A stretch of 32,000 bases of DNA, taken from the NCBI GenBank assembly GCA_964577555.1, contig CAZNZM010000001.1:55178-87177 (forward strand), given 5' to 3'. The translations under genes were made by a program, and so were the position numbers. This stretch comes from an uncultured archaeon. GTDB taxonomy: Archaea; Iainarchaeota; Iainarchaeia; Iainarchaeales; Iainarchaeaceae. Positions 8,520 to 17,699 of this stretch are shown in pieces (positions within the stretch are counted from its first letter, which is position 1; every line of letters begins with the position of its first letter). Under the pieces are notes generated by a model that searched no databases, was not told the DNA's origin, and saw only the letters and a list, made by a program, of their open reading frames with translations.

Positions 8520-11500
8520 TTGAAAAACCTGTATCAAATCTTGCAAAAATTGATTTTATTGATTTTTTTAACTGTTTTGCCTAGCGTGGCCCATGCAGGA
8601 ATAAGTTGTGGCGATACAAATTTTGTGTGCGTTGTTACAGGCACCAACACTACCTCGGCAAAGTTTGTGGATGGCAATACTTACGTTATAAATGGCGCAG
8701 TTATATTTCAAAACAGCGGAGTGGATTTAAACATAGAACCGGGCGCAGTAATAAAGTTTGTTCCTAGTTCAAGTTCCTTGACAATTACGTCATCTGCAAG
8801 AATTAATGCCAATGGCAATGCAACAAAAAGAATCGTTTTTACATCTTGCAGAGACCAAACAGTAGGAGCAAATACTTCAACCATTCCGTCATGTTCTGGT
8901 AATCCTTTGGACCAGGATTATTCTACTGCAATATCCATAAGCAGCACTGCACAAATGCTTCCTTCTGATTCGCTTAGTTTTATGAGCATAAAATTTGCAA
9001 CAACAGGGATTTCTTTGGCAAAATACATTGGAAGTATTCATGACATCAATTTCAGCAGGTTTGGAAGAAGAACTGGTTCTGGAAATGCAATAGCAATTTC
9101 AACGCAAACAGGCACTGAAATATACAATAATTCCTTTGATATAAATTCAAATAATACTAGTGGAGGAGTAAATGCAATACAAATAAGTTCTGATTACAAT
9201 GGCAGTATTCATGACAACAACTTTAATTCAAGGCTGGCATCATACGGGGTTTATGTAAGCTCAGGAAATTTTACTGGGAGTTTCCACGATAATAATGTCA
9301 CAGCACTTGCTTCGCATGGAATGGTTGTAACAACTTCCAATGATTTTAATTCTTCGATTTATAAAAACAAATTTGATATCAATGGAAACGGCGGGAATTA
9401 TACAGGGGTTTATAGAAGCGGTTCTTTTTATGGGAACATATATGACAACAATTTTGACATTAAAATGAACGCCTTTGGATTTTATACTCTTGGCACGGGA
9501 AATTTTGACGCAAACATTTACCAAAATTCATTTACGGGTTTAAATTTGCCAAGAGGAATAATATTAACCAATTCAGGATATTCAAAAGCAAAAATTTATT
9601 CAAACATATTTGACATGAATGGTTTTACAACTTCTTATGGTTATGCAATACAAATCTCTAACGATTTCAACGGAATTATAAACGACAACAATTTTCACTT
9701 GAAACAATTCATGTATGGAATTTATCATAACGGCGCATCTTTTTACGGAAACGTTGTTGACAACAATTTCGGCTTGGACAGGGCTTATGCAATTTACCAC
9801 AACTCCCCAATAATATATTACAGCGATATTAACCGAAATATTTTCTATTCGAAAACACCGAAATATGCGACTTATGTGAGAACAAATTATGGTTATTCAC
9901 TTTATCAATATAGTACTGGAGGAACATTTCCAGGAAGCTTTTGTGAAAATACTTTCCAGAATTTTTTCAATAATGGGATAGTATATACCAATGGAACTTT
10001 TTCAGGGAGTTTTTGCAAAAACAAAATAACTGACGCAAATATGACAATTCCTTATTTGTTTTATGTTGGAAGCAATTTTTCTGGTTCAATAATTGACAAC
10101 AATTTTTCCAATATGATTGGAAACTATACCAATGCATCATACTTTCTTTTTGGGGAGTCTTACTCTGGAGAAATAAGAAAAAACATTGTATTTGATTTTA
10201 ACAATTTACTTACCACAAGCTATTTTATAAGATTGTCTGGAACTCCTACAACCGGCAACATAACAGACAATAACTTTACCAAAATAGTGGGAACCAGCAG
10301 TTTGTATCTTATAGCATATACAGGCATTGGAACAACTTATACCAATATACAAGACAATAATATGACAAACTTTAGACTGAACGTAACACCATATTATCAA
10401 TCAAGCGGAACAATGGCGGGAACCTTCAGAAGAAATAAAATCAATGACCTTAACACTCTGAACAATGCAGTAATTAACACTAGCGGGGTTTTTTCCGGCG
10501 CTGTTTACGACAATAATTTTTCCAATTTATATAACACAAGAGTTTTTTACCAGTATTTAACCGGTTCTTTTACTGGAGATTTTAACGCAAATATTATTGA
10601 CAATCTTTATTTTTCCACTGGTGGCATTGAAACCATGTCAATTGCAGGCTTTTTTTCTGGAAAGATTTATAGCAACAAAATATCAAATATTACTAATTCA
10701 AACATAATCTATTCCACAGCAAATTTTTCAGGAAGCATATACAACAACAAGATTTCAAACATTACTGGTTCAAACGCAATTTATTCTAACGCTGCTTTTT
10801 CAGGAAATATTTACAATAACTTGTTTGTTAAAAACAACAGCGCCGCGCATTTTATATACCATGCAAGTTCAAACGCTTTTTCCGGAAGCATTTACAATAA
10901 TACATTTACAAACTTCAGAACTGGAACATCTTACGGAGTAAGAAACACAGGCAGTTTTACAGGCAATATATTAAGGAACGTTTTTACTCATGGAAGTGTT
11001 GCTCTTTCAGGAACTTTTTCAGGACAAGTAGGTTATAATGCGTTTTTTTCAATAACAACTATTGGCGGTTCGGCAAACCAACATGTTGGAGACCAAAACA
11101 CCCAAACTGGTTTTTCAAACGACCCTTTTTTGGCTGATAATAGCGACAGAAATTTCTTGTTGAACACTGACAATAATGGAGGACAAAAGCTTGTTAATAC
11201 AGGAAATATTGATTCAACCGAATTCTTCATGAAACGCACAACTTTGAGAAGCAACAAGCTTGACACAGGCATAATTGATTTGGGTTATCACTACGACCAA
11301 AATGCGTTATATGTTATAGTGCAATCGCCTAATGGCGGAGAAATAATTTCAGGAACAGAAAACATAGATTTCAACGTTGAATCCGGCTTTGGTTCAAGCA
11401 ATGAAATATTTGTTACACTTTCATATTCGCCATTCACTTCTGGCGGGACGCAAATAACGAGCAATTCTTTGAATGCATTTGTTTGTTCTTCAGGACCTGT

Positions 11501-16782: not shown

Positions 16783-17699
16783 GTATGATAGATATAAAAA
16801 AACTTTTGTTCGGCGGCAATAAAAACAATGATAAAAACGTGCAAAATAAAGCCGACAAGAAAGAAAATAATAATGTTAAAACAAATAATGCGGGAGAAAA
16901 TAAGAGTGAAAATAAGCAGGAAATCGAATCAAAGCGGGAAAAATATTTTAAAACTGGAATTCCGGGCATGGATGAATTGATGACAAGAGGTATACCTTGG
17001 GGTTCTGCGGTTATAGTTGAAGGTGGTCCTGGTTCAGGAAAAACGCTTTTTTGCCTTCAAGCAGGAATGAATGCGTGCAAAAGAGGGCTTAAAGTTCTTT
17101 ATATGAGTTTTGAAGAAAAGGAGGAAAGTTTGAGAGACCACATGAGAATGTTCGGGCACAACCCTGAAGAGTATGAAAAAAAAGGTTTGTTAATGATAAA
17201 AAGGTTTAATGCTCTCGATATTGCAAGAAGCGTGGAAGCTTTGTTGAGCGAAGCCAAAAAAGAATTGCTTATAGACGTGGAAGTTGTTTTGATACCCCAA
17301 AATTACAAGCCTGATTTGGTTTTGATAGACTCTTTGACTTCTATATCCTCCGCTTTCAGTGGGGAAGAATACAGGTTCAGGATATACATGGAACAAATGT
17401 TCAGGTATTTGGAAAAAAACAACATAACTTCATTACTAATAAGGGAAACCCCTAAACCTACCCATACTGGCACTGATGGAACTGCCGAAGGTGGAGAAGC
17501 AATAAGCTTTCTTTCAGATGGAATAATAGTTATTTACAATGTGCTTTACAGCAATGGGGAAAGAGGCAGGGCTCTTGAAATTTTTAAATTGAGAGGGGAA
17601 AACTTCAAAAGACGCTTAGTGGAACTCACAATAACAGATAAAGAAGGCATCAGGGTTTATCCTGACAAAGTAATAAAAGGAAAATATACCTTAACATAA
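16779..17699 (+). CDS. single-domain KaiC/RadA-like (RecA superfamily) ATPase with a Lys/Asn-rich N-terminal extension
   Basis: GIPGMDELMTRGIPWGS, Walker A GGPGSGKT (17022-17045), Walker B-like DLVLIDSLTS. GTG 16779 overlaps the TGA of the upstream gene (GTGA); the ATG at 16785 is an alternative start. About the first 60 aa are low-complexity K/N/E. Confidence 0.8.
   Translation: MSMIDIKKLLFGGNKNNDKNVQNKADKKENNNVKTNNAGENKSENKQEIESKREKYFKTGIPGMDELMTRGIPWGSAVIVEGGPGSGKTLFCLQAGMNACKRGLKVLYMSFEEKEESLRDHMRMFGHNPEEYEKKGLLMIKRFNALDIARSVEALLSEAKKELLIDVEVVLIPQNYKPDLVLIDSLTSISSAFSGEEYRFRIYMEQMFRYLEKNNITSLLIRETPKPTHTGTDGTAEGGEAISFLSDGIIVIYNVLYSNGERGRALEIFKLRGENFKRRLVELTITDKEGIRVYPDKVIKGKYTLT

Follow-up and report, generated by a model that had tools for sequence, protein, structure and literature searches.

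A DPANN gene module of anchor-bearing giant proteins, a small membrane paralog and a KaiC-like ATPase

We analysed a 32,000-nucleotide stretch of contig CAZNZM010000001.1 from an uncultured iainarchaeal genome (hereafter the window) and followed up a three-gene unit on its plus strand. The unit encodes a giant predicted surface protein, a small membrane protein related to the giant's stalk, transmembrane (TM) helix and tail, and a KaiC-like ATPase. These genes were found to recur together across DPANN archaea, and what the unit represents is less a feature of one giant than a conserved platform of anchors on which variable ectodomains are mounted. The complete model proposed here, a DPANN-wide surface module whose ATPase docks on cytoplasmic tails and exerts control from inside the cell, strikes us as evenly balanced between right and wrong.

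Conservation of the three-gene unit

The open reading frame (ORF) list and the translations gave the following layout:

8520-15839, plus strand: giant gene, 2439 aa, TTG start
15840-15855, plus strand: spacer between giant and small genes, 16 bp, without T-run or hairpin
15856-16782, plus strand: small-protein gene, 308 aa, TTG start
16779-16782, plus strand: overlap of the small gene's stop and the ATPase GTG (GTGA)
16779-17699, plus strand: ATPase gene, 306 aa, GTG start

Coordinates, lengths, the 16-bp spacer and the GTGA overlap all match those given in an earlier note on this DNA. That note also described the genes as translationally coupled, which holds in so far as the unit is tight in this genome but does not extend to the family, where gaps of 14-800 bp, other gene orders and an intervening gene occur. 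An alternative ATPase start, the ATG at 16785, lies 2 nt past the small gene's TGA and was picked by the public gene caller on the identical contig L093, so that the small gene and the ATPase either overlap by 4 nt or stand 2 nt apart. A terminator scan and inspection of both junctions found no hairpin or T-run, the scan being of bacterial type, at chance level and not applicable to archaea; the junctions are also too short to leave space for a terminator.

Scanning genome contigs with the single ATPase sequence returned only five loci, one of them an unrelated Methanosarcinales paralog, and querying protein word indexes with the small protein brought up no more than 5 and 11 relatives. A scan with an ATPase alignment yielded 404 relatives; the best 80 loci (57-73% identity) were analysed, and scoring of all their ORFs with hidden Markov models (HMMs) of the three families replaced the word-index searches. 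The small protein was adjacent to the ATPase in 47 of the 80 loci, and a further two carried an anchor-bearing ORF directly before the ATPase without a separate small gene (a clear fusion in L089, ambiguous in L049). Among loci readable on both sides, the small protein was adjacent or fused in 49 of 53. It was missing from four loci with at least 1.3 kb readable on each side and from six with one readable side, and 21 of the 80 loci were too short to judge. The giant's anchor adjoined in 26 of 32 assessable loci. With G, S and A denoting giant, small protein and ATPase, the order G-S-A was found 21 times, S-A 18 times, and A-G-S and G-A-S twice each; rarer orders were A-S (2), G-A (2) and one convergent arrangement. 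The triad was found in labelled metagenome-assembled genomes (MAGs) of Iainarchaeota, Woesearchaeota, Micrarchaeota and Aenigmatarchaeota, and its adjacency holds over at least five phylum-level DPANN lineages, with the remaining neighbours differing by lineage. Examples of these loci are:

L006, Iainarchaeum relative: giant split into 1484 and 886 aa, then 293 aa, then ATPase
L010, 788-kb contig: LamG giant of 2723 aa, 293 aa, ATPase
L012, 154-kb contig: LamG giant of 2655 aa, 293 aa, ATPase
L004, Woesearchaeota: giant, ATPase, small protein
L009, Woesearchaeota: small protein and ATPase only
L094, Micrarchaeota-labelled: 2247, 307 and 258 aa
L095, Aenigmatarchaeota: 1088, 274 and 271 aa
L096, Nanoarchaeota-labelled: small protein and ATPase

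Only the second ORF of the split giant in the Iainarchaeum relative (L006:1771-8947) bears the anchor, reflecting either a real split or a frameshift or assembly error.

Adjacency that survives changes in gene order is indicative of functional coupling. The triad, which the earlier note had described from one genome, is therefore conserved in relatives, being syntenic far past the closest of them and joined by natural giant-small fusions. At least six such in-frame fusions were identified (L011, L089, P0158, P0221, P0239 and P0199), in which the giant's tail is continued by an entire homolog of the small protein (E 1e-76 to 1e-109 over this second portion). By the Rosetta-stone argument these suggest that the giant and the small protein act together. 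At the fusion junction in L011 (8180-8260), the internal hydrophobic segment retains a signal-peptidase-like site (PAFA/VSD), so the polyprotein may be cleaved into two chains.

Coincidence would provide another account, in which the ATPase is an unrelated housekeeping gene that happens to neighbour surface-protein genes. The cluster does sit among replication and division genes in the window and its close relatives, and a few ATPase loci have no partners. Such an account would have to explain adjacency kept in at least five phylum-level lineages, through order changes and with other neighbours changing, which is unexpected without functional coupling, and we regard it as extremely unlikely.

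A fourth gene was present inside the cluster in approximately 21 of 92 loci, usually between the small gene and the ATPase (for example L029:3496-3972, L058:2043-2537 and L030:1466-1975); neither the window nor its close relatives carry it. Its product of about 160 aa has two TM helices and a conserved cytoplasmic N-terminal motif, FLSMDLxERMIRVEQ...TEYYKSL. Two anchor-bearing giants lie near one ATPase in L012:13552-20799 and L065:4738-11078, which suggests that a single platform can serve several ectodomain carriers. Beside the module in L012 (10889-13378) is a polyprenyl synthetase gene apparently interrupted by an intein (Hint, Intein_splicing and LAGLIDADG matches; 829-aa product).

The anchor module, its small paralog and the ectodomain

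The family is defined by the giant's C-terminal module, which was characterised with phmmer and an AlphaFold2 (AF2) model scored by predicted local distance difference test (pLDDT):

14490-15836, plus strand: C-terminal anchor module, 449 aa, family-defining (phmmer family and AF2)
14574-14894, plus strand: immunoglobulin (Ig)-like beta-sandwich of the anchor, residues 2019-2125 (AF2 strands, module 29-135)
14904-15269, plus strand: extracellular five-helix stalk, residues 2129-2250 (AF2 helices, module 139-260, pLDDT > 90)
15312-15374, plus strand: TM helix of the giant, residues 2265-2285 (hydrophobic segment inside a long AF2 helix, module 274-327)
15408-15530, plus strand: tail motif copy 1, helix-turn-helix ...ETQxxCFxxGKxSxxEY..., aligning to the small protein's tail
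15609-15731, plus strand: tail motif copy 2, ...ETQxxYFxEGLIETRxY... (second HMM domain, E 1e-7)

The AF2 model of the module, built from 21 sequences, had a mean pLDDT of 85. Its long helix 274-327 comprises the TM segment and a run into the cytoplasm, where three more helices follow; the whole cytoplasmic tail measures 154 aa. In the anchor-family alignment the columns Q, F, E and Y of copy 1 and Q389, Y392 and Y403 of copy 2 are invariant, and the shared motif, present twice in the giant's tail, has the consensus ...[ET]Q-x-x-[YC]-F-x-x-[GK]-x-x-[ST]-x-x-E-Y.... A SHOCT domain was considered for this motif and rejected, as the isolated tails gave no Pfam SHOCT match even at E <= 10.

A phmmer search of the anchor against 1.84e9 cluster representatives (50% identity) returned 691 matches at E <= 1e-3 and 303 at E <= 1e-30. 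The matches were full-length and nearly always at the extreme C-terminus of proteins ranging from about 450 to 5389 aa. The window giant reached 498 bits over positions 3-439 of an anchor HMM that was built on 100 family members and also included the anchor of this giant itself. A beta-helix stands in front of the anchor in the window giant, P0132 and L002; other anchors follow Laminin_G_3, Big_13, DUF2341 or NPCBM_assoc domains, or nothing recognisable. Because such differing ectodomains precede one and the same module, the giant can be read as a variable ectodomain on a conserved, portable anchor. Foldseek against the PDB matched only the Ig part of the module, to generic PapD-like Ig folds (E ~5e-5), and profile searches of Pfam, NCBIfam and the PDB with the anchor found no solved or curated relative.

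The order of Ig-like sandwich, helical stalk and C-terminal TM helix would also fit an envelope role. Anchor-bearing proteins would then form an S-layer-like coat in the manner of SlaB, and the ATPase would be a biogenesis or quality-control factor for their insertion, oligomerisation or turnover. The family is very abundant and occurs widely, its exposed parts evolve fast and its buried parts are conserved, the locus sits among housekeeping genes, and some genomes hold several anchor-bearing proteins. Known S-layer anchors, however, do without an ATPase of their own and lack a long conserved tail in the cytoplasm, and sizes of 450-5400 aa combined with adhesin-like LamG or beta-helix ectodomains are atypical for lattice subunits. 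Foldseek and PDB profile searches of the anchor gave no sequence or fold match to solved S-layer proteins. SlaB of the Sulfolobales itself is comparable by analogy only: it likewise has a signal peptide, beta-sandwich domain(s), an alpha-helical stalk and a C-terminal TM helix, but forms a trimeric coiled coil with virtually no cytoplasmic tail and no partner ATPase, and again no sequence or fold match was obtained. We consider an envelope role quite unlikely.

The small protein is a type-I protein with a helical ectodomain of about 180 aa, one TM helix and one tail motif:

15856-15915, plus strand: N-terminal signal/anchor segment (translation and family alignment)
16462-16506, plus strand: TM helix, residues 203-217, flank charges +1/+4
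16552-16683, plus strand: tail motif, single copy (family alignment)

It matched a profile built without window sequences over its full length (208.9 bits, E 4e-66), and Pfam, NCBIfam and PDB searches with it found no relatives. In the PDB profile searches with the small protein and the anchor, a GldL match at E 0.15 was not significant, and matches to single-chain variable fragments (scFv) were artefacts of Gly/Ser linkers. The earlier note had described it as a repetition of the giant's stalk, TM helix and tail. This resemblance is weak in BLASTP (32% over 71 residues after the TM helix, E 9e-4) and robust with profiles. An HMM of small proteins from other lineages, free of window sequences, matched giant residues 2126-2333 (E 1e-14) and, as a second domain, residues 2351-2412 (E 1e-7), a two-domain pattern that recurs in most of the 150 anchor-family representatives inspected. 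Aligning the two families with hhalign gave a probability of 99.0 (E 5.9e-18, 224 columns). On these comparisons, the small protein and the giant are true paralogs in stalk, TM helix and tail.

The giant is predicted to be a Sec-exported type-I membrane surface protein, and its full-length ortholog P0132 is 38% identical to it. N-terminal to the anchor and leading into it, the following parts were identified:

8520-8597, plus strand: Sec-type signal peptide, residues 1-26, ...VAHA/G (sequence; AF2 N-terminal helix at 2-18)
8922-11024, plus strand: right-handed beta-helix region, residues ~135-835, about 23-26 coils of ~25 residues
14094-14306, plus strand: CARDB/NEW3-type Ig-like domain (NPCBM_assoc), residues 1859-1929 (Pfam E 1e-12, 48.5 bits against a cutoff of 24.4)
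14388-14525, plus strand: Cys4 motif, residues 1957-1978, then Ser/Gly linker, residues 1979-2002 (read from sequence)

All parts that had been claimed for the giant beforehand were recovered, from the signal peptide, the beta-helix coils, the Ig-like and Cys4 modules and the Ser/Gly linker to the stalk, TM helix and tail. In the beta-helix region the repeat [GSA]x[IVF]xxNx[FIV] gave 19 strict matches over residues 228-796, spaced 24-29 residues apart or twice that. The AF2 model of this region, built on a shallow alignment of four rows, contained beta structure only, its short strands recurring three at a time across residues ~135-835, with pLDDT of 70-90 over ~140-680. All of the top 50 Foldseek matches in the PDB were right-handed beta-helix proteins, among them PL6 lyases, GH28, pertactin, tailspikes, EtpA and Ag43, at weak scores (E >= 2e-3, low TM-scores); a Pfam scan of the giant matched no beta-helix model. 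Uniform neighbours with weak scores support the fold class but no specific family. Further Ig-like matches, to DUF11 and DUF4625, were below the Pfam threshold.

The ATPase and its proposed cytoplasmic interface

The third gene of the unit encodes the following features:

16779-16943, plus strand: K/N-rich low-complexity N-terminus, about 55 aa, length varying among relatives
16950-17669, plus strand: KaiC domain (Pfam PF06745)
17022-17045, plus strand: Walker A, GGPGSGKT, residues 82-89
17112-17117, plus strand: catalytic EE, within SFEE at residues 110-113
17316-17330, plus strand: Walker B, LVLID, residues 180-184

The PF06745 match covered profile positions 2-230 of 231 (E 9.3e-47, 159.8 bits against a cutoff of 26.6), and all 23 diverse orthologs aligned keep Walker A, the EE pair and Walker B unchanged. 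The protein is thus predicted to be a catalytically intact, single-domain KaiC-like member of the RecA superfamily. In a PDB sequence search the nearest entries were KaiC domains, PH0284, PH0186 and SSO2452 (E 2e-26 to 2e-40), with RadA, RecA and RAD51 paralogs far weaker and no FlaH chain among the matches. The earlier note had named a grouping with RadA, RadB or ArlH as refuting its reading, and NCBIfam scores far below cutoff speak against such a grouping: 35.4 bits against 215 for ArlH (NF052589), 54.8 against 194 and 23.4 against 215 for the FlaH models, 27.7 against 172 for RadB (TIGR02237) and 13-19 against 259-361 for the RadA models. Pfam families of archaellum genes (arlI, arlJ and archaellins) were not found near the ATPase in the window or in 90+ related loci, nor was there a recombination context among its neighbours in the window. 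Circadian KaiC is a duplicated CI+CII protein of about 500 aa that occurs with kaiB (and kaiA). This identity was likewise rejected, since the window ATPase is a single domain of 306 aa, scores 105 bits against 408 with NF006799 and has no KaiB-like neighbour in the window.

Orthologs of the ATPase are 59-88% identical to the window protein and come from MAGs labelled Diapherotrites, Aenigmatarchaeota, Woesearchaeota, Nanoarchaeota and others; those in L047 and L076 have N-terminal extensions of about 200 aa. With an HMM of the clade, every syntenic ortholog scored at least 415 bits, and the nearest non-syntenic homolog, a Methanosarcinales protein in a chemotaxis/KaiC-array context, scored 258 bits. 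By these measures the clade is distinct within KaiC-like proteins and very conserved. A Methanosarcinales locus (L005:5055-8246) contains three tandem KaiC-like genes beside chemotaxis-like genes and represents a different system; the product of the first of these shares 44% identity with the window ATPase but begins with an extension of about 185 aa.

The tails of both membrane proteins (giant residues 2286-2439, small-protein residues 218-308) are predicted to be cytoplasmic, the position that the earlier note had given them. The signal peptides, the positive-inside rule (net TM flank charges outside/inside of +1/+5 for the giant and +1/+4 for the small protein) and the arrangement of the natural fusions agree on this. 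In a fusion the first tail lies inside, the former signal peptide crosses outward, the ectodomain lies outside, and the TM helix returns to leave the second tail inside; this second tail ends directly upstream of the ATPase gene. Identity of the parts of the window proteins to relatives at growing distance was as follows:

ATPase core: 90-64%
Giant tail: 67-36%
Anchor Ig domain: 67-33%
Small-protein tail: 72-31%
Giant stalk: 61-27%
Small-protein ectodomain: 53-23%

Tails are better conserved than stalks in both membrane proteins, the invariant columns of both cluster in the cytoplasmic motif Q-x-x-[YC]-F...E-Y, and the ATPase is the cluster's only soluble cytoplasmic protein. The strongest constraint lies in the cytoplasmic parts, which fits a conserved cytoplasmic interface.

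We propose that the giant would be exported by Sec and display an exchangeable ectodomain, here a long beta-helix with Ig-like domains, on its conserved anchor. The small paralog would pair with this anchor to give a heteromeric membrane platform, likely via the homologous stalks and TM helices of the two proteins. The conserved motifs of the cytoplasmic tails would be docking sites for the dedicated KaiC-like ATPase, and such docking appears fairly probable. Probably a hexamer by family analogy, the ATPase would form a ring that gathers several giant/small pairs, and its nucleotide or autophosphorylation state would be coupled to how the surface proteins assemble or cluster, or to the conformation they adopt. 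That it is indeed a hexameric platform coupling nucleotide or phosphorylation state to the surface proteins, and so providing inside-out control, has in our estimation slightly less than an even chance. The giant may serve as a host adhesin or otherwise in host attachment. In the most far-reaching version, the triad, with the fourth two-TM protein in some lineages, could be the core of an unrecognised archaeal surface machine, in which an ATPase ring beneath the membrane mechanically or allosterically drives single-pass, integrin-like heterodimers with interchangeable giant ectodomains and which is the basis of the structures for attachment and host interaction seen on DPANN episymbionts by cryo-electron tomography (cryo-ET); we hold this to be rather unlikely.

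Several observations weigh against the proposed mechanism. The hexameric state is assumed from homologs, and the tail motif is without detectable kinship to known ATPase-binding motifs. A host-binding role is further complicated by the structural neighbours of the beta-helix, which mix polysaccharide lyases and hydrolases with adhesins. With a fourth, two-TM protein in about a quarter of loci, the real complex may exceed the triad. Small protein and ATPase occur without a neighbouring giant in some genomes (L009, L034, L052, L058, L085, L087 and L096), and four to ten ATPase loci have no detectable partners nearby. Partnerless ATPases in L037 (568-1675) and L051 (153-1363) are preceded by small genes whose products begin like type IV pilins (e.g. 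QSMTIGTLVV). The ATPase may therefore serve clients besides or instead of the giant and small protein, for example pilus-like systems. The pattern of these exceptions suggests that the small protein and the ATPase may constitute a core serving one or several anchor-bearing proteins.

Anatomy and synteny would fit equally well if signals ran in the opposite direction, with the giant and small protein acting as a receptor for contact or a ligand. Binding at the ectodomain would be relayed via stalk and TM helix to the tails and alter the ATPase or autokinase state of the KaiC-like protein, a signalling hub for other functions of the cell. KaiC-like ATPases have been proposed as signal-transduction hubs in archaea (Makarova et al. 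2017, as cited in a passage of PMC6393860). S243 is invariant in the ATPase ortholog alignment and, judged by eye, its strand resembles the phosphosite strand of KaiC; conservation as extreme as that of the ATPase points to many binding partners. Autophosphorylation of this ATPase is nevertheless hypothetical, and no output domain or recognisable downstream signalling partner was found in the cluster in the window or the looked-up loci. Outside-in sensing would also require that wildly differing receptor ectodomains feed one invariant transducer, and we view it as unlikely.

A further alternative is a transfer conduit, in which the TM helices of giant/small pairs, together with the two-TM protein, would form a channel for symbiont-host effectors or nutrients driven by the ATPase ring. 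RecA-fold hexamers commonly power translocation and some loci supply the additional two-TM component, but KaiC-family ATPases are not known as translocases, each protein contributes a single TM helix, and the window holds no polytopic channel component. The pairing of a Nanohaloarchaeota giant with a cytoplasmic ATPase offers a conceptual parallel, a conduit having been proposed for the SPEARE giants there with their VirB4-type ATPases (PMC10266531). Pfam and NCBIfam scans nonetheless gave no VirB4, TraG, FtsK or secretin-like domains, and no candidate cargo genes are conserved near the looked-up loci, making a conduit very unlikely.

Genomic setting and relation to known systems

Two elements flank the unit:

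8455-8519, plus strand: upstream region with an AT-rich TATA-like box (8462-8473) and a Shine-Dalgarno (SD)-like GGTG (8509-8512), read from sequence
17710-17725, no strand assigned: perfect palindromic hairpin TTGCCCAAAAGGGCAA, between the ATPase gene and the convergent ORF 17738-18058 (minus strand)

The GGTG ends 7 nt 5' of the giant's TTG, and the two upstream motifs presumably act as SD element and promoter. The palindrome was a terminator-like match on the minus strand in the bacterial-type scan; it may mark the 3' end of the unit, perhaps as a bidirectional 3'-end element. The window has a GC content of approximately 34%, and close relatives carry the labels Candidatus Iainarchaeum or Diapherotrites. 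Its other genes include PolD DP2, SepF, Orc1/Cdc6, Hel308, NAC, FKBP, a proteasome beta subunit and FttA/aCPSF1. The Orc1/Cdc6-SepF-Hel308 block (window 156-8433; L006:11514-16152) adjoins the module in relatives too, on the opposite side, indicating that the module has been rearranged relative to replication and division genes. Three ORFs had no Pfam match, namely 27805-30912 (minus strand, 1035 aa), 26190-27419 (plus strand, 409 aa) and 19249-20592 (minus strand, 447 aa), and the position of the last is kept among Iainarchaeum relatives. Positions 21001-22000 are A-rich (GC 0.26, AT skew +0.55) without tRNA or Rfam match, and the minus-strand ORFs 20628-21284 and 20698-21582, which overlap the plus-strand FKBP gene (20641-21360), are probably spurious.

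ArlH is a single-domain KaiC-like ATPase that works docked to the ArlI/ArlJ membrane platform. The window ATPase resembles ArlH (FlaH) in being a single-domain KaiC-like protein with intact Walker motifs that is associated with a candidate membrane platform of a surface appendage. It is not, however, an ortholog (35 bits against 215), has no arlI, arlJ or archaellin gene nearby, and its partners are single-pass proteins, one with a huge ectodomain, in place of a polytopic platform and a second ATPase. With PH0284, PH0186, SSO2452 and cyanobacterial KaiC it shares Walker A, the EE pair and Walker B, and a hexameric ring is expected from the family. Those proteins differ in having no known membrane partners, clock KaiC being in addition a double-domain protein with KaiA and KaiB, and the DPANN clade has near-invariant segments of its own, among them residues ~143-167, and a variable N-terminal extension.

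Other resemblances are matters of analogy only. In Mycoplasma mobile gliding, the giant leg proteins Gli349 and Gli521 are driven by an internal F1-like ATPase. This system likewise combines giant anchored surface proteins and a RecA-fold ATPase ring in a genome-reduced, host-associated cell, but no component is homologous, the organism is from a different domain, and nothing here points to movement. The LapA/LapD/LapG system uses cyclic di-GMP (c-di-GMP) and a protease, and integrins use talin and kindlin. In both, a large adhesive ectodomain is set from the cytoplasm via the short tails of single-pass TM partners, and integrin alpha/beta is moreover a heterodimer of two type-I proteins; there is no homology to the present proteins and no ATPase in those systems.

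The closest described DPANN counterparts are the SPEARE giants of Nanohaloarchaeota, which have a VirB4/TraG-like ATPase domain at the cytoplasmic end and an adjacent VirB4-family gene (PMC10266531). Both systems involve a Sec-exported, membrane-anchored giant with Ig-like and LamG-type domains that is genetically coupled to a cytoplasmic P-loop ATPase and suspected of host interaction (PMC10266531). The ATPase here is KaiC/RecA-like and a separate protein, in contrast to the VirB4/TraG type there, and nothing equivalent to the anchor module, the tail motifs or the small paralog has been reported for SPEARE giants. None of the known systems compared here has the composition of the module, and their membrane parts are not homologous to it. 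Membership of the SPEARE group was rejected, as Pfam and NCBIfam gave no VirB4/TraG match in the window giant or its neighbours. The "putative secretion system" of Makarova 2015 (arCOG01314, MoxR, vWA) was also rejected, having different components. Full-text literature searches that paired DPANN with terms for the ATPase (KaiC, COG0467), for giant or other surface proteins, for LamG and for attachment organelles found no description of the module, although a brief earlier mention is possible; the earlier note's impression that no described system has this three-part composition thus holds for the searchable literature. The portions of cryo-ET papers on DPANN attachment organelles that a keyword search reached assign no protein components.

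The anchor and the small protein are two new families, and a KaiC-like ATPase working with a membrane platform is a known principle; the module as a whole stands a fair chance of being a new kind of surface machine. Much of archaeal diversity belongs to DPANN lineages, whose members seem mostly to live attached to hosts. To our knowledge, hardly any molecule has been tied to DPANN attachment, and the proposed hub role of archaeal KaiC-like proteins has little experimental support outside the archaellum. HMMs of the anchor and the small protein would classify thousands of "hypothetical" DPANN proteins, and the module supplies a concrete client candidate for one of many orphan archaeal KaiC-like ATPases. 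If the surface-machine reading is true, this would be the first defined cellular job for such an ATPase outside the archaellum. The portable anchor explains how very different giant ectodomains are mounted on DPANN cells. Together with its partner protein and dedicated ATPase it forms a defined, widely conserved and tractable set of parts, providing a molecular handle on how DPANN cells present, and possibly control, their surface and attachment proteins.

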